DNA of 64,000 bases from Candidatus Levyibacteriota bacterium. GTDB lineage: Bacteria; Patescibacteriota; Microgenomatia; Levybacterales; UBA12049. The notes beneath the pieces are model-generated. The model was not told the origin of the DNA. It searched no databases and was given only the letters and a program-made list of their open reading frames with translations. Position 1 is the stretch's first letter, and each line of letters opens with the position of its first letter. Below, piece by piece: positions 632 through 43,312 of this stretch. A program made the translations under genes and the position numbers. The stretch is from assembly GCA_963722305.1 (NCBI GenBank), contig CAVRKE010000001.1, forward strand, positions 245,549 to 309,548, in the 5' to 3' direction.

Positions 632-892
632 CTAGTAGTTAATCTTTTCCTTGAAGTTCTTCAACATCTCGTTCAGTCTATCAGTTATCAACTTCTCTTT
701 ATTATCGTCTATATATTCACCAGAAAGAAGCTTCCAATCAACCTCTCCTTCGTTAATCTGCTCATCAACTTTGTCGATATTCCCGTCTTGCTTTATATAA
801 GCCTGCATTAAGACTCCGTTTTCAAGTTTGTAATAAGAACTCATGTCCTTATACGCATACCATTGATTATTTGTTTTTATATTTTTATCCAT
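632..892 (-). CDS. hypothetical protein, 1 nt downstream of the MTase on the same strand
   Basis: 86-aa ORF with charged composition and no recognised motif. Confidence 0.4.
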   Translation of the reverse strand: MDKNIKTNNQWYAYKDMSSYYKLENGVLMQAYIKQDGNIDKVDEQINEGEVDWKLLSGEYIDDNKEKLITDRLNEMLKNFKEKINY

Positions 893-893
893 A

Positions 894-2128
894 TTATAGA
901 AAGCTTTTATCAGAGATTATCTGATTATTTTCTCTAATATCCTCCTTATTAAAATTCTCGTTAATTATATACCTTTTTTCAAAATCTGACATAAACTCAA
1001 AACTTGAAGTGCCTTTATACCGAGAGGTTAAACTATGATAACTCTCTAATTCCTCACCATTTATATGGCTCATGATTGCTTTGCCTGCCATATAGCCTAA
1101 CTCAACAGGCACGGCATTTCCGATTTGTTTATAAACGCTTATTGGTTTTCCGACAAATTTCCAATCTTTAGGAAATTGTTGAATAAGCGCGTATTCTTGA
1201 ATACTTAGAGGTCGTAGCTCGTCCGGGTGAACGAGCATTGTGGCTGGCATTGTCGGGTGAGTAACCAAGGTAGGTGAGGGCTTATCCCAATTAAATCTTC
1301 TATAAAATCCCGTTTTCCCCCCAGAAAGGTAATAAGATTTACTCATTGCTTCTTCTTGAAGCTCATCTGGCAAATCCCTCCAATCCTGACCTCCGTTAAG
1401 AAGTTTTATATATTTTAAATGATTTTCTCTTAACTTAATAAAATCATGTTGTCCTTTTTGTATGCTTCCTATTGCGTCTCTAAGCGTTACGAGATTTAAT
1501 GCAGAAGTAGGTTTGGGAATTGCAATAGGATTCGAAGATAAAGCTCCGAACATGATAAATCTTTCTCTTCGTTGAGGAACAGAATAAAGAGAGCTGTCAA
1601 AGAGGTTGAAGGAATTGAATAACCAAGTTTTTCAAATTCTTTATAAAGAAAATAAACCACACTTTCTGGAACATCTTCAATTTTTTTATATTCCTGATAT
1701 TCGGGAGGAGTGTTCTCAAGTTTTGCATACAAAATTCCTCGAACATTTTCCATGATGAAATACTTAGGCTGTATTTCTCGCACATAGTCTAAAAATCTCA
1801 CAATTACGTTTCCGCGAAAGTCATCGAAACTTCTTCTATGTCCGGCAGTGCTAAATGCTTGACAAGGTGGCCCTCCAACAATTAAATCAACCTCGCCTGC
1901 TTTTAAATTTAAATCTTTTAGGATATCGCTTGGCTCAATAAGGTTAATGTCATTTTCATATACCTTTAATTCAGGCCTGTTTAGCTTGATTGTCTTAACG
2001 CATGTTGCGTCATTCTCAATACACGCGACGACTTTAAAGCCTGATTTCTCTATTCCCAGGTCTAAACCTAAAACGCCACTGAATAGCGATATCGCTTTTT
2101 TTGTTTTTCCTGACTTACGTTGCGTCAT
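894..2128 (-). CDS. DNA (cytosine-5)-methyltransferase, interrupted by an apparent frameshift (ORFs 1496..2128 and 894..1553 overlap)
   Basis: Motif I FSGVLGLDLG, motif IV GGPPCQAFS and motif VI ENV in the upstream ORF; motif X QIGNAVPV in the downstream ORF; junk-like tail after the TRD in the first ORF. Confidence 0.85.
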
Positions 2129-3087
2129 ATGTATCTTTCCAAAACTTGCTCTACAGAGAGGCCTTTGTATTTATTTTCCCAGTAGCCTTTAAATTCTTTT
2201 ATCTTCTCATCTATAAGCTCAATAAAACTTTTATTAAGTATTCCCGTTGAAGAATTATCTAATATATTAAAAAGGTCTTTGTAAAAATCTTTTTTCTCGC
2301 TTATAAAATCCCAAAAATCTCTACCAATCAATATCTTTTCTTTCCCTCCACGCAAATGACCTATTTGGTCAGATAATCTATCCTTTGTTCCATAAGTTAT
2401 TCCAAGCAATCCTTTAGCCCCTGGTCTTTCTCTCTCTAGCTCAGATATTGCTTCTCCAAGGCTTGTTACCATTCCAACGTTCATTGAATTGGGGCCACTT
2501 TTGATTTGAATATAATAGTCAACATTTTTAATGCTTTTCATTAAATCGAAATTTGTTCCTTTTTTATCTTTAATGATGTAATCATTATCTTTGCAACCTG
2601 TAAATTTGGCTATAGATTCTACTGTATCTCCCCATGAGGTTACCACTGACCTTGTTATAGTTTGATAAAGATTGAAAACTATAATTTTTTCAGGCGTATC
2701 AAGATTTAATCCCTTAGCTAATAAAGGATTTATATCTAAATTCTCAAATTTTAATTGAACAAGCATTTCAACCTGCGACTTTAAAAATTCACGGCCTAAG
2801 TAAAAAACCCAACTTTCTTCCAAGGATAGTCTCTGAGGTAATGGCGCTTTTGATTTAATAAGTTCATCTATTTGTTCCGTAGATAATACTTGCTTATCTT
2901 TTGAATTTTTTATTTGAGAAAGACGCGCTATGTCAGCTGCTAGGAATTCCTGAAGGTTGCCTTCAAAATCTGCTGCAATCATTCCAGCAGTAGCAGTTCC
3001 TACACCGTTAACAGACCTTGCAATTTTCATTATTAAGGTGTCTACGGACTCTTTTATACCCTCTATTGCTGGTTCATTAGTTGCCAT
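2125..3087 (-). CDS. putative type II restriction endonuclease partnering the m5C MTase
   Basis: ATGA start/stop overlap with the MTase gene; N-terminal helix-hairpin-helix-like ARSVNGVGTATAGMIAADF; candidate PD-(D/E)xK-like NVDYYIQIK. Confidence 0.45.
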   Translation of the reverse strand: MATNEPAIEGIKESVDTLIMKIARSVNGVGTATAGMIAADFEGNLQEFLAADIARLSQIKNSKDKQVLSTEQIDELIKSKAPLPQRLSLEESWVFYLGREFLKSQVEMLVQLKFENLDINPLLAKGLNLDTPEKIIVFNLYQTITRSVVTSWGDTVESIAKFTGCKDNDYIIKDKKGTNFDLMKSIKNVDYYIQIKSGPNSMNVGMVTSLGEAISELERERPGAKGLLGITYGTKDRLSDQIGHLRGGKEKILIGRDFWDFISEKKDFYKDLFNILDNSSTGILNKSFIELIDEKIKEFKGYWENKYKGLSVEQVLERYI

Positions 3088-3183
3088 TATAAAACCATTA
3101 TAATCTACTTCATTAATTTAATCATCATCCTAATTTTCTCCGAAAGTCTTTAAAATAATTATACAACCGGCATAATATTGCTT

Positions 3184-3597
3184 TCAACTCCAAGGGAGTT
3201 TCTGAATCATTTCTCCAACTTCATCTACAACTCTTGTAGTAAATTTATCGATGTCCGATAAGTCTTTTTCGATTACTTTTTTTACACCTCTATCTTGTGC
3301 CTGCTTATTAAATCTTGTTACTGCTGAAATCGCAATTACTTTTTCTACTCCTAGATGCTCTACGTCTAGAACATGAAAACTTGCATTTATCTTGCAATCG
3401 CGATCGAGAATTATTATGTCAAACTTTGCCTTAGGGTTATCATTGATAAGATTCTCTACCTGCTCTGAATCATTAATTACTGTTAAGGAGAATTCGAAGG
3501 GTTGGCGATCTTCTAATGTCGAAAGTTTTTCGAGTAACTTAGAAAGAACTAGATAATTATCTTCTAAAATAAGGATCCGTTTTATTAATAGCGTCAT
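3184..3597 (-). CDS. stand-alone response regulator receiver (CheY-like) domain protein
   Basis: ILILEDN acidic pocket, FDIIILDRD phospho-acceptor Asp, VIAISA Ser/Thr and a conserved Lys. Confidence 0.7.
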   Translation of the reverse strand: MTLLIKRILILEDNYLVLSKLLEKLSTLEDRQPFEFSLTVINDSEQVENLINDNPKAKFDIIILDRDCKINASFHVLDVEHLGVEKVIAISAVTRFNKQAQDRGVKKVIEKDLSDIDKFTTRVVDEVGEMIQKLPWS

Positions 3598-3631
3598 CTG
3601 TAAGCATTATAAATCAATAATCTCTTGAAGG

Positions 3632-4039
3632 TTAAGTTTTCTTTAGTCTATCCGGATATACTATTTCTCCCTTAGGTTTACCTTTCATATATACTGAGGG
3701 GTCTTTGGGGTCGTATTCTAGCCAATCACACGGCGCTGTAACGCCTTGCACAAGATCAACTACAGCTAACTCATTCCAATACCTTTTTCCATCTTTTATT
3801 TTAAACGGAGTTAATCCTTGCTCTACCCAAAATCTAATAATTTCTTCAATATCCTCTGGCCCCATCGCACCGTCTTTATAAAGATATTTATCGTATAGAA
3901 TCTTTTTTCCGATCCATTGCCTATTAAGCTCAAGCACACCTTTTAACTTTCCTAAGTGCTTACACTTTTTTTCAATGATTTTAATTGGAATTACAACCGC
4001 AATGAATTGATGATAAATAGCCATATAGTGTTTGGACAA
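3632..4039 (-). CDS. hypothetical protein
   Basis: 135-aa ORF, no recognised motif. Confidence 0.4.
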   Translation of the reverse strand: MSKHYMAIYHQFIAVVIPIKIIEKKCKHLGKLKGVLELNRQWIGKKILYDKYLYKDGAMGPEDIEEIIRFWVEQGLTPFKIKDGKRYWNELAVVDLVQGVTAPCDWLEYDPKDPSVYMKGKPKGEIVYPDRLKKT

Positions 4040-4042
4040 AAA

Positions 4043-4276
4043 CTAATTATTGTTTTGCTGTTTATTCCTAAATATTGAAGCAACAATAATAAAAATTACA
4101 GTAATAATTAATGAGGCTGTGAAGAGACTGTAACAATCGTGTCCCCTTGATGCGCAAGTTCCGGATCCATTATGGTTAGTCACATGTATCCAGTCGATAA
4201 GTAAAGAAATGATATAGATTACAGCAATAAATTTTTGCTTTTTATTCTCAACTAAGTTATTAAAAAAAATGTTCAT
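4043..4276 (-). CDS. small membrane protein (hypothetical)
   Basis: 77 aa with two hydrophobic segments. Confidence 0.3.
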   Translation of the reverse strand: MNIFFNNLVENKKQKFIAVIYIISLLIDWIHVTNHNGSGTCASRGHDCYSLFTASLIITVIFIIVASIFRNKQQNNN

Positions 4277-4292
4277 ATAAATTAAACATTAT

Positions 4293-4802
4293 CTATATAA
4301 TATCTTTTGACTTAACATCATCTATTGCTCTTTGAACGGTGATTCTGTAATTTTCATTCTCGTTTTTCAAAAGATCGGATGAGTAATCCAAGAATAACCG
4401 GTAATATGCCTTAGCATCATCAATCTTGCCTGCTCTTTCTAGGACTGTGCCGGCCTTATAGGTATTTAGTGGATCTGGATCAATTGAAGCTGCTTTTAAA
4501 GCTGAGGCAATAGCTTTCTCAAACAACTCCTTTTTTTGGACAATTGTTATTCTTTGTATAGAAGAGGGGAATCTTATTCTGTTTAAATACTCTTCCGCGA
4601 GGCTAAACAGAGCTTGAGAGGCAATAGTTTTATGCATTATTTTAACTAGTTCTTCGGGCGCATACCACTCTCCCTGAGCTTCTTCTTTTTGTTTAGCCGA
4701 CAGAAATTGTTTCCATGCACTATTTACTGTCTGCTTTTCCTCATCTGTTAGATGAATTTCTTTCTTGCTTTTGTTATCTGATTGCATAAGTAAAATATAC
4801 AT
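4293..4802 (-). CDS. hypothetical protein, TPR-like helical
   Basis: 169 aa; AYYRLFLDYS and AIASALKAASIDPD look like TPR. Confidence 0.4.
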   Translation of the reverse strand: MYILLMQSDNKSKKEIHLTDEEKQTVNSAWKQFLSAKQKEEAQGEWYAPEELVKIMHKTIASQALFSLAEEYLNRIRFPSSIQRITIVQKKELFEKAIASALKAASIDPDPLNTYKAGTVLERAGKIDDAKAYYRLFLDYSSDLLKNENENYRITVQRAIDDVKSKDII

Positions 4803-4845
4803 CTTTTGAGATCATAATGCTAGTTATTGTCTGTAGAGTTATTGA

Positions 4846-5079
4846 ATGCATTTTCATACTATTCTAGATATGAAAACAACGCCGGCACGAAAACAACTTG
4901 GAGAACGGATTAGAAAGCTAAGAAAAAAGCAAGGGATCTCTCAAGAAGAACTTGGATTCAGATCGAAGCTACACAGAACATATATTGGTGCTATTGAGCG
5001 CGCAGAGCAAAATGTTTCTATTGATAACATCCATAAGATTGCCAAGGCTCTAAAAGTATCCCCAAAAGAACTTTTGTAA
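4846..5079 (+). CDS. XRE-family helix-turn-helix transcriptional regulator (Cro/C1 type)
   Basis: LGERIRKLRKKQGISQEELGFRSKLHRTYIGAIERAEQNVSIDNIHKIAKALKVSPKELL is a classic HTH_XRE. Confidence 0.75.
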   Translation: MHFHTILDMKTTPARKQLGERIRKLRKKQGISQEELGFRSKLHRTYIGAIERAEQNVSIDNIHKIAKALKVSPKELL

Positions 5080-5089
5080 AATAAAAATT

Positions 5090-5800
5090 CCGCCATCTTC
5101 CACCATCAACGAGGCTGTGTAAAGATTACTTAATCACGAAAATGCTGAAAAATGCTGAAATTTTTCGCACTTCTATGCAAAAATGTTAAGTTTTGTTAAG
5201 GTTTTCTGCATTATTTATACTTAAATAAGAGTTTGGTGACACGATAAAAAGAAGCTAAAAAGTAGTTTATTATCACTATAAAGATGGAACTATGATAAGA
5301 ATTGATAAGATTTTTCGCGCTACATACGAAAATACTAAAATTTCCTGAAATTTTTAGAGTTATCTATGCGTGAATGAAAGTTTCTTGACACGATAAAAAG
5401 AGGCTAAAGAATAGTTTCTTCCCACTATAAAAGGGAATATATTGAGTTTTATTGAGGTTTTTCATATATTTAGCCAGCAAATGCTAAGTTTTGCTAACCT
5501 TTTTGACATCTAACTGCCACAAAACTAGTTTTGTGGCACTATAAAAGAGGCTAAAGAATAGTTTCTCCTCACTATAAAAAGAAATATGCTGAGAATTGCT
5601 GATATTTTTCGTTTTACAAGCTACAAATGTTGAGGTTAGTCAAGGTTTTTCATGTATTTTAGTCAAGAAATGTTATTATTTGTTATTATTTTCCGCTATT
5701 ACCACACATAACTAGGCACAATAAAGAATTTTTCGGCACTTATAAAGAAGCTAAAATTGAGTTTTCCGCCGCTTTACGCGCGCGCGTGCGCGCGAGATTC
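5090..5800. repeat. tandem array of four degenerate ~149-bp units (core starts 5238, 5387, 5536, 5736), each with a conserved ~45-bp core GACAC(G/T)ATAAAAAGAGGCTAAAGAATAGTTTCTNCNCACTATAAAAG and an internally duplicated variable part
   Basis: Direct reading; spacing 149, 149, 200 bp; AT-rich. Confidence 0.8.
5777..5797. repeat. alternating CG tract ACGCGCGCGCGTGCGCGCGAG, palindromic and Z-DNA-prone, isolated in AT-rich DNA at the end of the repeat array
   Basis: Direct reading. Confidence 0.7.
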
Positions 5801-5850
5801 TTTGAGTAAATTTATTAAATCCTGTAAAATGTAGATAGATTGAAATGTAG

Positions 5851-6543
5851 ATGAATATGAAGCAAAAAGATTTTAGTATCAATTACTCTTTGCGAAAACT
5901 TATTCAAGATAAGTTTATTCAAAGCATGGTAGCGGATTTATATAAGCACAGAAAAGAAACAGACCCGGTAACCATCTTTCTTCCGCTTACAAATGACCGT
6001 TTTAATAAAATCGCCTCTGATCCTGACCATGAAGGCATAGAAAATTTTGAGGAGCTTTGTCTAACTTTTGATGACAGTTTATTCTTAAATGAGCTTTTCA
6101 AGTTGAGAGTTTTGTCTAAAAAAGAATGCGCAGACGAGGATTTTTCGGCGTGTGTGAAAATAATCAATCCAGAGTTTATCGAACATATTCATGCGTGGAT
6201 AAAGGACAAAAATCTCATTATCAATTACGGCATTTTTAGCCTTCACACTTTTTCAGGAGAAGCATATTGTTTGGATAACAAATATGTTTTCCATGCCGGA
6301 AAGAGATCATTTCGGGTATTTCGATCCTTTCTCGAAGAGCCAACGCATATACTTGACTATCAAACCATTTATAAAATATTTTACAAAGGAGAAAAGAACA
6401 GACCGACTTACCGAATGAGTCCTACACAAATTCACCAAATAATAGGCGATATAAGGGAAAAACTACACATGAAGGGGGAACTCTCAAAATTGTTTGTCCC
6501 ATCATCAGATCAATACATCCTAAAATCAGATTTAGGCCTTTAA
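5851..6543 (+). CDS. DNA-binding protein with C-terminal OmpR/CadC-type winged-helix domain; candidate partner of the upstream repeat array
   Basis: C-terminal RVFRSFLEEPTHILDYQTIYKIFYKGEKNRPTYRMSPTQIHQIIGDIREKL matches the Trans_reg_C pattern (ends in an LRKKL-like motif). Confidence 0.5.
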   Translation: MNMKQKDFSINYSLRKLIQDKFIQSMVADLYKHRKETDPVTIFLPLTNDRFNKIASDPDHEGIENFEELCLTFDDSLFLNELFKLRVLSKKECADEDFSACVKIINPEFIEHIHAWIKDKNLIINYGIFSLHTFSGEAYCLDNKYVFHAGKRSFRVFRSFLEEPTHILDYQTIYKIFYKGEKNRPTYRMSPTQIHQIIGDIREKLHMKGELSKLFVPSSDQYILKSDLGL

Positions 6544-6652
6544 TACAATCCATTCAATTAGGTAATCTTCAAAATACTCCCCGATAGTTCCCCACCTATG
6601 ACTAGCCCATACCAAGAGACTCCTGCTTTATTTCTTTTTAGTATTCCACTAT

Positions 6653-6904
6653 ATGGAAAATAAATTTACAACTTACGACATACTTCTCTCCTCTTTTTTG
6701 CTTACCAATGAAATCAATCTTATAGGAATAAAAGAGACTTTTCCCCGTCGTTTTATTTTTATACTTTCAGATACCGATAAGTGTGAAAAACTTTCCAAAG
6801 AATATATTAACAACGCTTCGGCTCCTGCGCGAGAACTTTTTTCCAATCGAGAAATGCTTATCAATGAAATAAATAGAAAAATGACTAATGCAGTAAGGGG
6901 ATAG
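6653..6904 (+). CDS. hypothetical protein
   Basis: 83-aa ORF; weak. Confidence 0.25.
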   Translation: MENKFTTYDILLSSFLLTNEINLIGIKETFPRRFIFILSDTDKCEKLSKEYINNASAPARELFSNREMLINEINRKMTNAVRG

Positions 6905-7146
6905 AGAAGCGTATTGAAAACGCAAGCCGAAAGGCTAAGTGGTAATCGACTGCCACAACCTACCGCAGAAGGACTGTTCGGATTGAAACAAGCGGTTTCC
7001 CGATCACACCAAACGAACAGATAAGATGCTTTGCAAGACCGTTGAAACGCGTGAGCAAAGATTAACATCAAAAACCTTCTGGTTTATCTCTCTTCTTCTA
7101 AGAAATGAGATGAGTAACAGTAGTAACTAGGGAGAGGAAAAAGAAT

Positions 7147-7311
7147 ATGGAAAATCGAAAAATCGATCAAAAAACAACAAAACAACTAGTTATAGATGCC
7201 GGGTTGCACCAAAGACTTAAGATGATGGCGGCGGAGCGCTCTATGACTATTAAAACGCTCGTGGAAGGGTGTCTAGCGGAACTTCTAGTAGTTAAAGGAG
7301 AGGATTTATGA
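7147..7311 (+). CDS. ribbon-helix-helix (CopG/Arc-like) small DNA-binding protein
   Basis: 54 aa MENRKIDQKTTKQLVIDAGLHQRLKMMAAERSMTIKTLVEGCLAELLVVKGEDL has the RHH beta-alpha-alpha pattern; not in the ORF track because it is short. Confidence 0.5.
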   Translation: MENRKIDQKTTKQLVIDAGLHQRLKMMAAERSMTIKTLVEGCLAELLVVKGEDL

Positions 7312-7469
7312 CACCGGAAGAATTTAAACAAGCAATTCAAGAATTTAAGGTCATTTACAAAGAGGTATTCGGCGTCGAATTGAATGGTGAAGAAGCAACT
7401 ATAAAAGCCCGGAGCTTACTTCAGTTGTTCGACTGCTTGACAACAGGAACAGGAAAGGGATTACAATGA
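7308..7469 (+). CDS. small hypothetical protein, translationally coupled (ATGA overlaps on both sides)
   Basis: 53 aa MTPEEFKQAIQEFKVIYKEVFGVELNGEEATIKARSLLQLFDCLTTGTGKGLQ. Confidence 0.35.
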   Translation: MTPEEFKQAIQEFKVIYKEVFGVELNGEEATIKARSLLQLFDCLTTGTGKGLQ

Positions 7470-9210
7470 AATTAGAAGAGATAGAAATGCAAAAGCATCC
7501 AATAACCAAAAACGAAAAAAAGTTTTATATTATATACTGCCGTAAATCATCTGAAGCAGAAGATAGACAAGTTGAAAGCATCAATGACCAACTTAAAGAA
7601 GCTGATAAAATAATTCTTCAAAGAAGTCTCGACGTTAAAGACAAACCGTTTACCGAATCGCGCTCAGCAAAAAAACCGGGTAGGCTAGAATTTAACCGAA
7701 TGATTGAGGAAATTGATAATAGGCATGACATTAAAGGCATTATTTGTTGGAAATTAAATAGACTTTTTAGAAATCCTGAAGATGAAGGTAAAATAAGACA
7801 ACGACTTTCAGACGGAAGAATCGAAGAAATAGTTACGCCTTCAAAAACATACCTAGAGGCTGATAGTGATTTTACAATGGCGGTAGAAGGAGCTCAAGCA
7901 CAAAGGTTTATCAGAGATTTGAAGGAAGATACTGCAAGAGGAATCAAATCAAAACTTGATAAGGGTATTGCTCCGATATTAGCTCCACCGGGTTATCGTA
8001 ATTGCCTTGAAAAAAGACAAGGGGAAAGAAACATAGAGCCTGTTCCCGATCAATTTACTTTATCAGAAACTTATTCGAGATATATCTTACCGGCAATTAC
8101 TCCGTTCAACAACTATGGTTTAAGGCAAAAGAATTGGGTATAAAAAGCAATAGGGGCAATATTATTAGCTTAACGCAACTTTATAAAATGCTGACAAACC
8201 CATTCTACACGGGCACAAGATATGTCTATGCGGACAAGCTATATACAAACGGAGTTCACAAAAGAATGTTAACCGACGAAGAATATAATCTTATACAAGA
8301 AATTCTTTCAAAGAGAACGCATCCAAGGGGCTCAATTCATATGGATTTACTAACTGGAATTATGAGATGTGGGGAATGCGATAGAACAATCACTACCGAA
8401 GTTAAAACCAAACACTATAAAAATGGCACATCTCAAACATTTGTTTATTATCGCTGCACCAAGAAATGGAAAGGTAAAAAATGCACTCAACCTTATATTC
8501 GCGCAGAATTACTTGAAGAGCAAGTAATGAAGTATCTTGATGGATTACAACTTTCTCCACGCTTTGTGGAATGGGCAATCAAATGGCTTCAAGTAATGCA
8601 CGGGAAGCAAGAAAAATTACGGGAAGCAAAATATAAAACGATAGAACAAGCATATCAAGAAGTTGTTAAAAAGATTGTTAGAGTGGTTGACTTAACCCTT
8701 TCCGGGATGTTAACAGCCGAAGAAGGCATATTAAAGAAGCAAGAATTAGAGGTAGAAAAGAAAAGATTATCTGAAGAATTAGAAATGATTGATACTCATG
8801 TTTCAGAATGGAGCAGTCTTGCTATTCAAACTTTCGACCTTGTTAAAAACATCAAGGAAAGATTTACTAGCGGGTCTATTGAACAAAGAAAAACAATACT
8901 CCGCGTTATTGGCTCGAACCTAATATTAAAAGACAAAACTATTCAAATTGAGATTCGAAAACCTTTTGAGTATATACAAAAGGTTGTAAGTCAATTAAAC
9001 GAAGATAAACGGCTCGAACCTATCGATTTGCCTGATATAACAAGCCAAGAAGCCTTTTTGCACTCTCCAAATATAATAGTGGGTGGAAGACGGGTGCTGC
9101 CCCCGCTACTTCCTGGACCACAACCAGGCGCTCTACTGTTGAGCTACATCCACCGAGTGAAACGAGGTAGTACTATACCGAAGGTACAGTACACCGCACC
9201 TCAATTATAA
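7466..9210 (+). CDS. large serine recombinase (integrase/resolvase type) with an apparent +1 frameshift near 8048-8060; the C-terminal tail reads through an antisense tRNA-like sequence
   Basis: Catalytic YIIYCRKSS...DRQ; resolvase-domain GRLEFNRMIEEI; recombinase domain resumes in the other frame (IRNLFEIYLTGNYSVQQLWFKAKELGIKSNRG...NPFYTG); zinc ribbon CGECDRT...YYRCTKKWKGKKC; coiled coil. Confidence 0.85.
9082..9154 (-). tRNA. degenerate tRNA-His(GUG)-like sequence, possibly an att-site remnant or pseudo-tRNA
   Basis: G-1 plus GUGGAUG acceptor pairs with CUUCCAC and C73 (one U-U mismatch); D-arm GCUC/GAGC; anticodon stem CCUGG/CCAGG with loop UUGUGGU; T-stem GCGGG/CCCGU but a non-canonical T-loop GGCAGCA and a short D-loop. 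Confidence 0.35.
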
Positions 9211-9254
9211 CATCTTTTGAGGCTCAATAAAAATAAATTGTGTTACAATAAATT

Positions 9255-9854
9255 ATGGTTTCAATCAGTGAAATTTGGGAAGACAAAGAAGGTTTTGAAC
9301 AGTGGTTTGAAAATCCCCAGTTGCATCTTCGGTTAAGAGACTTCCGCAAACCTCCGCCTTTAGCGGAAGAAGATTTAGTTTTATTAACTGAGCTTGGAAC
9401 TGGACCAAAAACTTATGATACGGGTTTGGTCATTGGCCGCTTTCAACCGCTTCACTACGGACACATCTTTTTAATGATGCAGGCGCTTAGGGTCTGCGAT
9501 CAAATTGCCGTTGGTATTGGAAGCGCCAATGTTGTCGACGAAAAAAATCCTTTTCCCATAGACTTAAGGGAACAAATGTTAAGGGAGGCACTACACGATT
9601 TTGGACTTACTGCAAGACTAACGCAAATTGTCAGAATTAATGATGTTAATGATGACCAACAATGGTTTGAGCAAACACGTTTGCTTACAAAATTTGATGT
9701 GGTTGTGGGTAACAATGAATCCGGCGTAAACAGAATCTTCAGAGAAAGGGGGATTCCGACCGTGCAAACCCCTCTTTTGAACCGCGCTTTTTATCAGGGG
9801 ACACATATCCGGTGGACGCTGAGCAACGAAGGTTTACTACCTCAAATCATTTAG
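9255..9854 (+). CDS. nadM: nicotinamide-nucleotide adenylyltransferase, archaeal NadM-type cytidylyltransferase fold
   Basis: GRFQPLHYGHIFLM HxGH nucleotidyltransferase motif, about 200 aa. Confidence 0.75.
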   Translation: MVSISEIWEDKEGFEQWFENPQLHLRLRDFRKPPPLAEEDLVLLTELGTGPKTYDTGLVIGRFQPLHYGHIFLMMQALRVCDQIAVGIGSANVVDEKNPFPIDLREQMLREALHDFGLTARLTQIVRINDVNDDQQWFEQTRLLTKFDVVVGNNESGVNRIFRERGIPTVQTPLLNRAFYQGTHIRWTLSNEGLLPQII

Positions 9855-10782: not shown

Positions 10783-11562
10783 CTATAAGTTATTGTTAAG
10801 GTGGTAGGGGACTCTTAATTTGTAGGCATTATTTTCGGCAAACTCAATAATTTTTTTTGCCCCCGGATACATTTGCTCAATCGAAAAAGCCGAATTCTTT
10901 TTATCAAAATACAAAAGTAGAACCGGATCCGCTTCTTTGTAGGTAAAACCGAACTCTTTTTCGTCGGTTTGCTCTCCCCATAAACCCGCTGAAGGATGTT
11001 TTGAAATAATTAACTCCGGAATTTTTAAATATTTTGCCAATTCATAAACCTGAGTTTTGTACAGATGGACAATCGGTTCAATATCGGAAGCCGCGTCGCC
11101 AAAACGAGTGAAGTAGCCCAAAAAATGTTCCGAACGGTTTTCCGTACCAACCACCATGGCATTATTTTTTTTGGCAGTGTCAAAAAGCATCATCATACGG
11201 ACCCGCGCCATAATATTTCCCTTACGGACCAAATCTTTTTCGGGAACCTTTAATTCTTTGATCAAACTGTCCGCCATTATTTTGATTGAGAAAATCTGCA
11301 GATTAGATTTTGGAATATTTAAACTTTGTAGCAGTTGGTTAATATCATCAGCTTCATCCTTAAAATAGGGAAGATGTAAAATTTTGATGTTTTGAGAAGG
11401 TATTGCCTTGCTTAAAAGCGCCAAACTGACGGCCGAATCGATTCCACCGGAAACTCCGATCACTGCTTTTTTGATTTTTTGGTCCAAAAAAGTTTGCCTT
11501 AAAAAAGAGACAATTTTGGAAACCTCTTCTTCTGTGTCTATTTCCAACAAGTCTTTAAACAT
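10783..11562 (-). CDS. nadE: NH3-dependent NAD+ synthetase
   Basis: PP-loop IGVSGGIDSAV (SGGxDS); likely start MFKDLLEI inside the longer ORF. Confidence 0.85.
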   Translation of the reverse strand: MFKDLLEIDTEEEVSKIVSFLRQTFLDQKIKKAVIGVSGGIDSAVSLALLSKAIPSQNIKILHLPYFKDEADDINQLLQSLNIPKSNLQIFSIKIMADSLIKELKVPEKDLVRKGNIMARVRMMMLFDTAKKNNAMVVGTENRSEHFLGYFTRFGDAASDIEPIVHLYKTQVYELAKYLKIPELIISKHPSAGLWGEQTDEKEFGFTYKEADPVLLLYFDKKNSAFSIEQMYPGAKKIIEFAENNAYKLRVPYHLNNNL

Positions 11563-12120
11563 ATAATTTATGCTCCTTAATATACATCTCCACTTTTTCC
11601 GGCACAAGACCATGAATTGATTTTCCTTGTTTAACCCTTTCTCTGATTTTAGTCGAAGAAAAATCGGTGGTAATCAGTGTTGGTGAACTAAGCACTTCAA
11701 AACCTTCGGGAATTTTAGAGGGAATGGCGTGTGGATCGCGCGGTACAATCAGAAATGTGGCAAGCTTCAAAAGCTCATCTGCCTTTGCCCACCTTCTAAA
11801 TTCCGGCAATATATCCGAACCGCACACCCAGAAAATTTCCGCCCCGGTTTGACTTTTAACTTCTTTAATCGTATCAACGCTATAACTGATTCCCCTCCTT
11901 TTGATTTCGATATCCGAAATTTCTACCCGCGGTTGTAAAAAAACTTTCAGCATTTCCATTCTGTCTTTAGGACTGGCAACAATCGGTTTCCACTGGTGTT
12001 GAAAAGTCGGTACTAACAACAATTTATCGATATCCTTACGGAATTTTAGAACTTGTTTAACGGCTAAAAAATGACCAAGGTGGGGAGGATCAAATCTTCC
12101 GCCAAAAATTGCAATCTTCA
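11555..12120 (-). CDS. nadD: nicotinate-nucleotide adenylyltransferase
   Basis: IAIFGGRFDPPHLGH HxGH motif; start placed at MKIAIFGG because the longer ORF N-terminus overlaps tRNA-Arg. Confidence 0.8.
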
Positions 12121-12181
12121 TTCTGTGATATATTGTATCAAAATTTCCATTTCTTAGCCCCATTTGATAAAATATGAGTAC

Positions 12182-12254
12182 GGCCCTGTAGCTCAACGGA
12201 TAGAGCGAGTGCATTCTAAGCACCAGGTTGGGGGTTCGATTCCCTCCAGGGTCA
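12182..12254 (+). tRNA. tRNA-Arg(UCU)
   Basis: Manual fold: acceptor GGCCCUG/CAGGGUC, D-arm GCUC/GAGC, anticodon loop AUUCUAA, T-arm GGGGG-UUCGAUU-CCCUC. Confidence 0.85.
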
Positions 12255-12359
12255 CAAGTTGTATCTAAGCTCCGCAATTACAAACAGGTTCAATTGTTGT
12301 ATAATCTTTTTGAACTTATTAATCCTGTTAAATCCGATTAAATTTGATAGTAATTAAAT

Positions 12360-13516: not shown

Positions 13517-13589
<73 letters not shown>

Positions 13590-13590
13590 A

Positions 13591-13620
13591 AAAAATCCCC
13601 TTTTTTAGGGGATTTTTAAT
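13591..13620 (+). terminator. rho-independent terminator after tRNA-Gly
   Basis: AAAAATCCCC-TTTTTT-AGGGGATTTTT hairpin plus T-run. Confidence 0.7.
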
Positions 13621-13721
13621 TGACCTTGATTACAATCATTGAATTAAACCGAATTGTAAGGTAAAATTGTAATACGTTAGTCTCGACCCCTGCCTCGAAT
13701 TTCGGGGTCGAGTCTATACGC

Positions 13722-13806
13722 GCCGCGGTGGTGGAATGGCAGACACGAGGGCCTTAAGAGCCTTTGCCTTTAATCGGGCGTGAGAGTTCGACTCTCTCTC
13801 GCGGCA
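13722..13806 (+). tRNA. tRNA-Leu(UAA), type II
   Basis: Acceptor GCCGCGG/UCGCGGC, D-arm GUG-GAAUGGCAGA-CAC, anticodon loop CUUAAGA, long variable arm, T-arm GAGAG-UUCGACU-CUCUC. Confidence 0.85.
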
Positions 13807-13826
13807 CTTCTTCATAAACTTATTTC

Positions 13827-14007
13827 CGGGGAATAGCTCAGTTGGTAGAGCGCGCGGTTTGCCTGCCCGCCATAGCTACGGAGTGTAGTTCATCGGTAGA
13901 ACGCTCGGTTTGGGACCGAGAAGTAGGAGGTCCAATTCCTCTCACTCCGACAAGGCAAGTGCAGGCGGGGGACCGTGAGGCCGGAGGTTCGAGTCCTCTT
14001 TCCCCGA
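13827..14007 (+). tRNA. split/intron-containing tRNA-Ala(UGC)-like gene; the ~108-nt insertion in the anticodon loop is itself a complete tRNA-Pro
   Basis: 5' half CGGGGAA-UA-GCUC-AGUUGGUA-GAGC-G-CGCGG-UUUGC; 3' half (A)CCGUG-AGGCC-GGAGG-UUCGAGU-CCUCU-UUCCCCG-A; acceptor 7/7 bp, anticodon stem 5/5 (one G-U), canonical D and T loops. Confidence 0.5.
13879..13950 (+). tRNA. tRNA-Pro(UGG), nested inside the tRNA-Ala-like gene
   Basis: Acceptor CGGAGUG/CACUCCG, D-arm GUUC-AUCGGUA-GAAC, anticodon stem CUCGG/CCGAG with loop UUUGGGA, T-arm GGAGG-UCCAAUU-CCUCU (C55 unusual), discriminator A. Confidence 0.6.
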
Positions 14008-17016: not shown

Positions 17017-17081
17017 TCAATGCGGGATCGTCCACACAGGGACGCACCCACCAAGTAAGGTAAAAATCAATGCGGGATCGT
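17017..17081. repeat. 15-bp direct repeat TCAATGCGGGATCGT (17017..17031 and 17067..17081); the second copy contains the tRNA-Gln 5' end
   Basis: Direct reading. Confidence 0.8.
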
Positions 17082-17141
17082 ATAATGGTAGTACAGCGGA
17101 CTTTGGATCCGTTTATCATGGTTCGAATCCATGTCCCGCAG
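17071..17141 (+). tRNA. tRNA-Gln(UUG)
   Basis: Acceptor UGCGGGA/UCCCGCA, anticodon stem GCGGA/UCCGU with loop CUUUGGA, T-arm CAUGG-UUCGAAU-CCAUG. Confidence 0.85.
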
Positions 17142-17329
17142 CCGATATCGACAGGAGGTTCGTCAGCATCACGAATAGCTTGATACAACGGGCTAATCGT
17201 GTAGTTTATATAGCTAATTTTTAATATCAAACTACATACTCCCGTTTTACACTTCGAACCCAGTAGGTTTCTAATTAAGCACGTCCAGTTATAGTTGACA
17301 ACAAAAAAGGCATTCGTTATACTCGGCTT

Positions 17330-41052: not shown

Positions 41053-41139
41053 TGGTGCGGATGAGAGGACTCGAACCTCCACGCTTTTTAGGGCACAGCC
41101 ACCTCAAGGCTGCGTGTATGCCAGTTTCACCACATCCGC
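41053..41139 (-). tRNA. tRNA-Leu(GAG), type II, CCA encoded
   Basis: Reverse complement folds: acceptor GCGGAUG/CAUCCGC, anticodon stem CAGCC/GGCUG with loop UUGAGGU, long variable arm, T-arm GGAGG-UUCGAGU-CCUCU, ACCA. Confidence 0.85.
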
Positions 41140-41329
41140 TCGTCGCGAAGCGACGAGCGTCTCCGCTTTGACACAGTCAAAGCTTAAACCTTTCGTCGAT
41201 CGCTCCTCTTTCAAATTTCTTCGAAATTTGAGAAATAACTTTAATGTGCTTAAAGATTATAACAAAAATCCAATTTCTATTTTCTCTATTTCTAATTATG
41301 AATTTTGAATTCTATATTATTAATTTCCG

Positions 41330-41416
41330 TGGTGCCCGGGGGGGGATTCGAACCCCCAATCCCTTACGGGAATAGCGTCCTGAACGCTACGCGTCTGCCA
41401 GTTTCGCCACCTGGGC
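41330..41416 (-). tRNA. tRNA-Leu(CAG), type II, CCA encoded
   Basis: Reverse complement folds: acceptor GCCCAGG/CCCGGGC (one A-C), anticodon stem UAGCG/CGCUA with loop UUCAGGA, T-arm GGGGG-UUCGAAU-CCCCC. Confidence 0.8.
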
Positions 41417-42466: not shown

Positions 42467-43312
42467 ATGTTTTCTTTTCTTAAAACACGCAGGGGGTTAT
42501 TAATTGTTGGCTTATTGGTAGTTGTTTTAATCGGTCTTCCTGTAACGATTTATTTGGTTGGAAATCCACAACTGCTTCAGCAATTTGCGTGTGTTCCCGA
42601 ACCTAAGGCAACAACTGCTTGTAGCGGCTCCGACGTTATTATTTCGTTTACGTATACAATTTCCGACCTTCCGACAAATGTTAATTCCCAAGTTTCCGTA
42701 ACGGATTCGCAAAACCTAGTGACAGACAGTTTTGCATTCAACTATGGAGCGCCGACATATTCAAAAACAGTCGATACCCACCAATCCGTTATACAAGCTG
42801 GAATTTTAACATTCAATACCGTATCAACTAATGGCTTCAAAAAAACAAATCAGATAGGATACCCTGCGACAGGTCCGTGTGCCGCACCTACCGGTACACC
42901 GACTCCAACTCCTACAGAGGAAGTAACGCTCACTCCTACCCCAACGCTTACTCCTGTTCCGACCTCACCGCCTGCGGCAACGGATACACCGACTCCAACT
43001 CCTACAGAGGAAGTAATTACTACCGATACTCCTACGCCTACATCTGGGCCAACTTCACCGCCTGCGGTAACGGATACACCGACTCCAACTCCCACGGGAG
43101 AAGCAACAACTACGGCGACCCCTACACCGACGTCCGGACCCGGACCAACTTCAACACCTGGGCCAACAGCGACTCCCAATCCTCAACCAACAGTTATCGT
43201 GCAAGGACCAACTGTTGCACCGACCGGACCATCCGGAAATATTATATTTAATGTAGGGATTATGGGAATTATAATTACTGTTATCGGAGGATTACTGCTA
43301 CTTAGTCTGTAA
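42467..43312 (+). CDS. cell-surface protein with Pro/Thr-rich tandem repeats and a C-terminal TM anchor
   Basis: Signal peptide; three imperfect ~90-bp DNA tandem repeats at 42890..43130 encoding TDTPTPTPTEEV...TSPPA; C-terminal hydrophobic helix. Confidence 0.6.
   Translation: MFSFLKTRRGLLIVGLLVVVLIGLPVTIYLVGNPQLLQQFACVPEPKATTACSGSDVIISFTYTISDLPTNVNSQVSVTDSQNLVTDSFAFNYGAPTYSKTVDTHQSVIQAGILTFNTVSTNGFKKTNQIGYPATGPCAAPTGTPTPTPTEEVTLTPTPTLTPVPTSPPAATDTPTPTPTEEVITTDTPTPTSGPTSPPAVTDTPTPTPTGEATTTATPTPTSGPGPTSTPGPTATPNPQPTVIVQGPTVAPTGPSGNIIFNVGIMGIIITVIGGLLLLSL

Follow-up and report, generated by a model that had tools for sequence, protein, structure and literature searches.

Layout of the array

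The window analysed here is the whole 64,000-nucleotide stretch of contig CAVRKE010000001.1 (positions 245,549 to 309,548) from Candidatus Levyibacteriota bacterium, and all coordinates below refer to it. Near its left end lies a tandem repeat array, followed directly by a gene for a 230-amino-acid (aa) protein with two winged helices, within an integrative element that carries a large serine recombinase. We favour, tentatively and with somewhat less than even confidence, the view that the array brings together cis-acting docking sites for the adjacent protein, serving as a regulatory or titrating platform. A first reading made from the letters alone (the sequence-only reading) had called it a candidate replication/partition or integration control module and likened it to an iteron-type origin with a Rep-like protein and copy-control or resolution functions. 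The features on which the argument rests are as follows.

5139-5775, + strand: tandem repeat array of four units, 31% GC
5139-5288, + strand: unit 1, with box a, box b and a ~55-bp core
5289-5435, + strand: unit 2, with box a, box b and a ~55-bp core
5436-5582, + strand: unit 3, with box a, box b and a ~55-bp core
5583-5775, + strand: unit 4, with boxes a, b and c and a degenerate core
5851-6543, + strand: 230-aa two-winged-helix protein, directly after the array

The array is real and far beyond chance. A 25-nt anchor, ATAAAAAGARGCTAAAGAATAGTTT, matches the array at three places when as many as 3 mismatches are allowed, whereas shuffled sequences give 0.00 matches and the rest of the window has none; with a degenerate fourth copy at 5741, this bears out the four-unit tandem array of the sequence-only reading. 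A repeat search placed a 24-nt anchor at 5245, 5394, 5541 and 5741, giving spacings of 149, 147 and 200 bp; the reading's 149, 149 and 200 bp are thus right for the first and last intervals and wrong for the middle one. Alignment of the units, which are 64-80% identical in pairwise comparison, revealed a common plan of box a, ~13 nt, box b, ~20 nt and core, and unit 4 reaches 200 bp because a third box is present. The repeated core with two half-sites that the reading described does exist, but it spans ~55 rather than 45 bp and is degenerate in the last unit. Same-face phasing of the repeats, also claimed, holds for the boxes of the window array (at 10.56 bp the resultant is 0.84, a value that random placement equals in 0.3% of cases; p ~0.003). 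It does not hold in the related loci L010 (box spacings 102, 35 and 38) and L022 (44-82), where no helical phasing was found, so phasing is a by-product of the 147-149-bp unit and not a trait of the family.

At 31% GC the array is the second least stable 300-bp stretch of the 64 kb. Low stability is one point for an iteron-type origin or copy-control array, in which the two-winged-helix protein would serve as Rep-like initiator and, once the element has excised, melt the AT-rich array. Another is that a DNA-binding protein is encoded beside the repeats it is presumed to bind, and a third that it has two tandem winged helices, an arrangement shared with RepA, RepE and Pi. Long units with embedded short iterons also recall P4 crr. 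The local evidence runs the other way, and we regard an origin as unlikely. The 50- and 100-bp stability minima of the array fall outside the eight least stable of the window, leaving the region AT-rich overall with no discrete 50-100-bp unwinding element, and no DnaA box (TTATCCACA at ≤1 mismatch) was found in 5080-5850. The boxes are not near-identical iterons, and the 25-bp core anchor is present in 3-4 copies at 147-200-bp spacing.

Boxes with matched 7-mer pairs

All nine boxes of the window array share one design, composed of an A-run, TGNTNAN, 3 nt, a second copy of that same 7-mer, R and T4-5, with a period of 10 bp. They are all co-oriented and point toward the winged-helix gene.

5143-5168, + strand: box 1, TGCTGAA AAA TGCTGAA ATTTTTCGC
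5184-5209, + strand: box 2, TGTTAAG TTT TGTTAAG GTTTTCTGC
5293-5318, + strand: box 3, TGATAAG AAT TGATAAG ATTTTTCGC
5333-5358, + strand: box 4, TACTAAA ATT TCCTGAA ATTTTTAGA, degenerate pair
5440-5465, + strand: box 5, TATTGAG TTT TATTGAG GTTTTTCAT
5482-5507, + strand: box 6, TGCTAAG TTT TGCTAAC CTTTTTGAC
5587-5612, + strand: box 7, TGCTGAG AAT TGCTGAT ATTTTTCGT
5628-5653, + strand: box 8, TGTTGAG GTT AGTCAAG GTTTTTCAT, most degenerate pair
5671-5696, + strand: box 9, TGTTATT ATT TGTTATT ATTTTCCGC

Exact 7-mer repeats in the array region are concentrated at one offset, with 16 at 10 nt versus 0-1 at 7-9 and 11-13 nt, and five of the eight exact repeats at offset 10 in the entire window fall inside the array. 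These are the small internal duplications that had been noticed in each unit. With a pair at exactly 10 bp in each of the nine boxes, the array has the direct-repeat half-sites at 10-11-bp period that characterise OmpR/PhoB operators. A weight matrix built from the nine boxes found no further site in the window.

The 7-mers agree within boxes and vary among them (TGCTGAA, TGTTAAG, TGATAAG, TATTGAG, TGCTAAG, TGTTATT and others), and only the T-run and a few positions are common to all. When partners were shuffled among the nine boxes, a mean of 22.6 mismatches was obtained versus 7 observed, a value reached in 0 of 200,000 shuffles. Across 20 boxes from three independent arrays the paired 7-mers mismatch at 12% of positions, compared with 75% for the preceding 3-nt linkers (Fisher p 5e-18), so the identity is confined to the 7-mers. 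Slippage was considered as the sole cause of the matched half-sites and rejected, since a 10-bp slip would copy the linker too and the linkers are unrelated. Slippage by 10 bp does occur, as box 1 has two 10-mers in the window and a single 10-mer in L001. In some relatives the 7-mer is present a third time, in inverted orientation.

It is conceivable that the boxes form a set of addresses in which each 7-mer is required twice, with half-site equality and not fit to a consensus under selection, but we give this idea very little credence. If true, it would be a recognition logic not described for OmpR-type proteins, in a rare family confined to integrative elements of the candidate phyla radiation (CPR, Patescibacteria), and might involve one protein with several specificity states, or binding that senses equality by way of DNA shape or the pairing of slipped strands.

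Cores, array end and promoter-like element

Between the box pairs lie the cores, each of which contains two CAC(T/G)ATAAAAG motifs. The unit alignment gives their plan as AGTTT-N7-CAC(G/T)ATAAAAAG, A(A/G)GCTAAA and AGTTT-N7-CACTATAAAAG, with the first motif reading CACGATAAAAAG in units 1-2. The cores and the features that follow them are listed here.

5230-5284, + strand: core of unit 1, AGTTT-N7-CACGATAAAAAG, AAGCTAAA, AGTTT-N7-CACTATAAAG
5379-5433, + strand: core of unit 2, with the best promoter-like match, TTGACA-16-AAGAAT, not kept in other units
5527-5580, + strand: core of unit 3, its left part being the right arm of the palindrome at 5515-5538
5706-5772, + strand: degenerate terminal core, TAGGCACAATAAAG ... 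GGCACTTATAAAGAAGCTAAAATTGAGTTTTCCGCCGC, with the CG tract in place of the second CACTATAAAAG motif
5775-5795, + strand: alternating purine-pyrimidine tract ACGCGCGCGCGTGCGCGCGAG
5802-5830, + strand: promoter-like element TTGAGT-17-TAAAAT for the winged-helix gene

The palindrome is a perfect one of 24 bp (TGCCACAAAACT/AGTTTTGTGGCA) and is confined to unit 3. The alternating CG tract that had been reported at the end of the array was found at 5775-5795; it includes a 7-bp GC hairpin (5777-5794) that is terminator-like, with a weak T-tail. L010 carries the non-palindromic ACACGCACGCACG at this position. Within the promoter-like element, ATCCTGTAAAAT is kept in L001 and L022 and has one base changed (ATCCTATAAAAT) in L016. 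After the -10-like TAAAAT and ahead of the winged-helix start codon, AAATGTAGAT occurs twice, 16 bp apart (5827-5852), and is largely kept in L001 and L016; this pair may be a promoter-proximal operator.

Another candidate role is that the array is transcribed and acts as short RNAs, terminator-like elements or peptides of 10-25 codons begun at the ATG of the boxes, with the GC hairpin as the end point. Besides this terminator-like hairpin on the + strand, points in its favour are a + strand fold somewhat more stable than that of shuffled sequences (z -2.7) and an ATG at the start of most boxes, which then read M-L-x-x-x-x-(I/V/L)-F. In relatives resembling L018, the corresponding place holds perfect hairpins of 10-13 nt, each with a T-run after it. 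However, an Rfam scan of 4700-9400 at E ≤ 1 gave no match except a tRNA, the fold z-scores (-2.7 and -1.3) are driven by pairing of A-runs with T-runs and by one palindrome, and boxes of the window type, being direct repeats, are unable to form hairpins. Short open reading frames (ORFs) were rejected, as the 10-nt period is out of frame, box 4 lacks a start codon and the 10-bp indel in L001 shifts the frame. Tandem promoters were rejected as well; a sigma-70 scan returned 13 matches, not above the 8.7 +/- 3.1 in shuffles, with a good match in unit 2 only and a spacing that varies between units. Antisense targeting was also set aside, since sequences complementary to the box 7-mers occur 14 times in the rest of the element, not a clear excess over the 7.8 expected. 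Overall, a role as RNA or peptide seems highly improbable.

The two-winged-helix protein

The 230-aa protein has no match in Pfam or PHROGs searches. An AlphaFold2 model on the family alignment (predicted local distance difference test score, pLDDT, 88.5) shows a generic winged helix in the N-terminal part (~1-118) and an OmpR/PhoB effector domain (Trans_reg_C) in the C-terminal part (~120-226), the latter built from a four-stranded sheet at its N-terminus, a bundle of three helices that includes the recognition helix, and a beta-hairpin wing at its C-terminus. Sequence comparison points the same way, as 13 of 25 homologues match Trans_reg_C (PF00486) weakly (best E 1.7e-4), and three distant family representatives exceed its curated cut-off of 26.2 bits. 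Its modelled fold places the protein in the OmpR/PhoB effector-domain superfamily, in agreement with the OmpR/CadC-type winged helix named in the sequence-only reading. No receiver or other known signal-input domain is fused at its N-terminus; a winged helix replaces the receiver, and this architecture is undescribed. The model has no Rep-type fold and does not identify the protein as a RepA/RepE/Pi (Rep_3-like) initiator, a further point against an origin.

The family is rare. Homologues form 25-28 clusters among 5.8 billion sequences, and 58 family representatives were found among 1.84 billion, nearly all 218-250 aa long. Named homologues come from Gottesmanbacteria and Patescibacteria, and in a collection of species genomes a single genome, a metagenome-assembled genome of Patescibacteria, encodes a relative. 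The protein had no match in IMG/VR or among PLSDB plasmids, the core pattern none in IMG/VR and the array none among GenBank phages. With no Rfam match to the array either, the opinion that the arrangement belongs to no described family stands. One IMG/VR match to TATTGAGTTTTATTGAGG lies inside a coding region and was dismissed as a chance match. Across the family the recognition-helix segment HQIIGEIREKL is nearly invariant.

The array in related elements

An array search in related loci showed that the same array is present in L020, from a second sample (99.95% identical over 6.4 kb), and, with one 200-bp unit fewer (three versus four), in L001, L002, L003 and L008. In these four the deletion endpoints lie in repeated TTTT(G/C)(T/G)GGCAC, and box 1 has the single 10-mer. 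In L001 the exact start of the deletion is the centre of the palindrome at 5515-5538. Site dosage is therefore plastic, both in unit number (4 versus 3) and through the 10-bp indel.

Comparison of the window with L001 gave very different degrees of conservation on the two sides of the start codon. The arrays are 98.4% identical, with 9 differences in 553 aligned positions, whereas the winged-helix proteins are 73% identical (synonymous divergence dS 0.82, nonsynonymous divergence dN 0.17), and the leftward ORFs are 86% identical. Identity falls sharply at ~5088 and again at the start codon of the winged-helix gene. These sharp borders indicate that the array is a discrete mosaic module, exchanged by recombination, that now stands beside two diverged proteins.

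More distant relatives retain the box design. L010, whose protein is 54% identical, carries four boxes that share this design and its vocabulary, including a pair (TATTGAG/TATCAAG) related to that of box 5, and its array ends in ACACGCACGCACG. L022, at 52% protein identity, has seven or eight boxes, among them the box 5 pair itself, but lacks the CACTATAAAAG core. In 147 kb of related loci the weight matrix gave 15 matches above 13 bits. Of these, 13 stand immediately ahead of a winged-helix gene (in L001, L010 or L022), all 13 in the orientation of the gene. Elements L018, L004/5 and L024 are of a different type, with copies of YTGATWA, direct and inverted, and a T-run (in L018 with perfect arms of 10-13 nt), together with a TAGGCAC-N-AAAAG motif reminiscent of the window cores. 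No array was found in L006, L015, L016, L017, L021, L025 or L027, so box number among relatives ranges from 0 to 9.

Variation of this kind could reflect a largely neutral minisatellite, in which a short ancestral regulatory region, with one or two boxes and a motif near the promoter, was expanded by unequal recombination in one lineage and the added copies do nothing themselves. Unit number varies with deletion endpoints within repeats, the arrays are lineage-specific and missing from most relatives, and the window element appears to be decaying, its recombinase being frameshifted and its methylase split. Neutrality is difficult to reconcile with the box architecture and matched half-sites, which are kept in all nine boxes despite 64-80% unit identity. 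The independent arrays of L010 and L022 have other spacing and no core but the same box design, which argues for selection on the boxes. We therefore think a neutral minisatellite quite unlikely.

The distribution also bears on the proposed origin. The sequence-only reading had named as refuting it a protein without a DNA-binding fold together with absence of the array from relatives that keep the flanking genes, uniform read depth and no circular junction reads. The absence from relatives is what was found, as the array is missing from most related elements that retain the flanking genes, including the primase and helicase carriers. On the other side, a primase Zn-ribbon protein and an AAA_25 helicase in the same operon of some relatives indicate that the element family can replicate; L016 encodes both and L021 the helicase alone, and both lack the array, while the window element, which has it, carries no helicase or primase.

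The integrative element

The genes that surround the array and the winged-helix gene are listed below.

4846-5079, + strand: XRE/Cro-type helix-turn-helix (HTH) gene, 77 aa, left flank of the array
6653-6904, + strand: DUF5659-like ORF, 83 aa, weak Pfam match
7147-7311, + strand: ribbon-helix-helix (RHH) ORF, 54 aa, Antitox_RHH/Arc-like, weak (Pfam E 4e-4, below the curated cut-off)
7308-7469, + strand: ORF of 53 aa without a family match, in translational coupling with the RHH gene
7466-9210, + strand: large serine recombinase in two frames, Resolvase at 7466-8143 and Recombinase plus Zn_ribbon_recom at 8134-9210
9082-9153, - strand: tRNA-His(GUG)-like gene inside the 3' end of the recombinase ORF (Rfam 44 bits; no ARAGORN call)

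The RHH gene and the tiny coupled ORF downstream of it, both noted earlier, are present, and the RHH ORF has a 53-aa homologue in L001. The 240-bp gap before it (6905-7146) is comparatively GC-rich by eye and has no ORF and no Rfam match; at the equivalent place L001 has a 118-aa ORF with no detectable similarity. All three recombinase domains (PF00239, PF07508, PF13408) were matched, as expected of a large serine recombinase, but the gene that the sequence-only reading had noted is in fact split into two ORFs. The frameshift responsible lies near 8056-8062, outside any homopolymer. The type II restriction-modification (R-M) cargo at 894-3087 (EcoO109I-like plus Dcm) shows similar damage, its C-5 cytosine (Dcm) methylase being split into 894-1553 and 1496-2128. 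The two split genes reflect either decay of the element or assembly errors, and given them the window copy may be immobile.

The tRNA-His(GUG)-like sequence has an aberrant T-loop (GGCAGCA) and is probably a hybrid tRNA at the right junction of the element. With all three recombinase domains at the element edge beside an attachment junction, and the same layout in L006 and L018, the earlier assignment to an integrated mobile element is upheld. The 3' end of the recombinase gene overlaps a tRNA-Asn in L006 and another tRNA in L018. In L001 and L004 the recombinase abuts a group I intron instead of a tRNA, and an intron-containing tRNA may be the integration target there.

L001 11570-11774, - strand: group I catalytic intron, Rfam 82 bits
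L004 5107-5330, - strand: group I catalytic intron, Rfam 55 bits

A common backbone is found in the homologue-bearing contigs. From the left it consists of a leftward cargo operon, a minus-strand structured RNA or XRE HTH gene and an intergenic region, followed by the winged-helix gene, the DUF5659 ORF (always next after it), two to four small ORFs and the large serine recombinase. The whole element measures ~7 kb in L001, where it lies between divIC/xerC and murI. Type I R-M systems form the cargo of L006 (363-6283) and L027 (1-6376), and these small elements may be mobile defence islands of CPR bacteria. HTH_36 proteins are encoded in L018 and L027. A literature search for described CPR serine-recombinase elements found nothing relevant.

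The structured RNA is LOOT RNA (RF03000, 70-89 bits), detected on the minus strand in L001 (7281-7387), L004 (1154-1275), L006 (7805-7924) and L016 (79-194), and seen by eye also in L022 (~2475-2600), L015, L021 and L024. It lies between the cargo operon and the winged-helix gene, on the cargo strand and directly upstream of the first cargo start codon; in the window, L018 and L025 the XRE HTH gene takes its place. The genomic context of LOOT RNA is thus that of CPR serine-recombinase elements, in the position of a leader or small RNA.

The gene content also bears on whether the array serves partition as a centromere-like site, transfer as an oriT, or packaging as a pac-like site in an element of satellite type. 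The window sites are phased on one helical face, a GC-rich inverted repeat closes the array, an RHH protein of accessory type is encoded nearby and L006 carries an ORF resembling a small terminase (Terminase_2) beside the module. However, the phasing is not kept in L010 or L022, nor the hairpin in L010, and genes for a partition NTPase, relaxase or capsid are absent from the window element and most relatives. For ParA, ParM and TubZ in particular, Pfam and PHROGs scans of ORFs 632-9210 gave none, and none were called in related loci. We consider any of these three roles very unlikely.

Two features elsewhere in the window were recorded in passing. A 90-bp tandem repeat at 42895-43125 (2.6 copies, 79% matches) probably codes for a Thr/Pro-rich segment. 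Twelve tRNA genes are spread across the 64 kb, including those at 12182-12255, 13517-13951, 17071-17143 and 41053-41416; the first, tRNA-Arg(TCT), overlaps the 5' end of a minus-strand ORF (11555-12277), whose true start is therefore probably further downstream.

A proposed docking array for an OmpR-type protein

In pho boxes, WalR sites (TGTWAH-N5-TGTWAH) and OmpR sites the half-sites recur directly every 10-11 bp, a geometry that effector domains of the OmpR/PhoB type bind as head-to-tail dimers. The modelled effector domain, the 10-bp direct repeats with AT-rich linkers and the exclusive co-occurrence of the two together suggest that the boxes are docking sites for head-to-tail dimers of the 230-aa protein. 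The array would occupy the central control region of a small CPR integrative element mobilised by its large serine recombinase. Each box, with two matched 7-mers one helical turn apart and flanked by an A-run and a T-run, would receive one head-to-tail dimer, such that nine boxes could load ~18 protomers. For the second class of motif, GGCAC/CAC-N-ATAAAG in the cores, the reader might be the N-terminal winged helix or else a different small DNA-binding protein that the element encodes. A loaded array would buffer the free concentration of the protein and in this way could determine how strongly the rightward operon (winged-helix gene, DUF5659, RHH and recombinase) is expressed. The absence of a box at the promoter-like element and the range in box number favour such a titrating or regulatory platform over an essential cis-acting site. 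The near-invariance of HQIIGEIREKL fits the use of the same box vocabulary beside diverged proteins, and from the sequences a single DNA specificity shared across the family is plausible.

Several observations weigh against docking. A single fixed DNA specificity would not predict 7-mers that vary across boxes yet match inside them, and the box array is missing upstream of most family members. Basic residues are fewer in the recognition helix than in its counterparts from canonical OmpR/PhoB proteins. The promoter-like element at 5802-5830 is free of boxes, the nearest lying ~130 bp upstream, so the simple geometry of an operator or activator site is missing. Finally, the conserved cores have no assigned reader.

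The closest resemblance among known systems is to OmpR/PhoB sites (the pho box, OmpR F1-F3/C1-C3, WalR and the heptad repeats of SARP proteins), which likewise consist of 6-7-bp direct repeats one turn apart with AT-rich linkers, several sites often being clustered. The window differs from them in a period of 10 and not 11 bp, in having nine boxes over 550 bp with none at a -35 position, and in boxes that vary among themselves while matching internally. Its protein has no receiver, BTAD or transmembrane partner but a novel N-terminal winged helix, and its gene is on a mobile element of a CPR bacterium. Iteron origins (F, P1 incC/incA, pPS10, R6K) and P4 ori/crr also place co-oriented repeats beside a gene for a two-winged-helix protein, in an AT-rich context and with variable copy number. 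Unlike the iteron origins, the window has box-specific paired 7-mers in place of 17-22-bp near-identical iterons, a C-terminal domain of OmpR and not Rep type, and an array that lacks DnaA boxes or a discrete unwinding element and is missing from most relatives.

P2 Cox and lambda Xis are winged-helix architectural proteins that act on phased direct repeats in switch and att regions. They share with the window a small winged-helix protein of an integrative element and multiple co-oriented, helically spaced direct repeats in a control region. The window recombinase is of the large serine type, however, its protein is two-domain and OmpR-type, and its array lies ~3.3 kb from the att junction; large serine recombinases are not known to use DNA-bending accessory sites. 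Centromere arrays (F sopC with 12 copies of 43 bp, TubR-tubC, R1 parC) differ in that the window has no partition NTPase gene and has units of 147-200 bp, and in that the arrays related to it are neither tandem nor phased.

The novelty lies in combining an orphan regulator of OmpR type with an array of many boxes, both carried on an integrative element of a CPR bacterium; the half-sites, matched within boxes yet different among them, are a clean, quantitative oddity. Were the array an origin after all, it would represent a new Rep/iteron type. To our knowledge, almost no transcription factors, mobile elements or cis-regulatory DNA have been characterised in CPR bacteria (Patescibacteria). In this group the locus defines a small, recurrent element with a fixed backbone whose cargo is often a restriction-modification system. 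A rare and unannotated two-winged-helix family gains a testable DNA target, and LOOT RNA, an orphan Rfam motif, gains a genomic home in the same elements.

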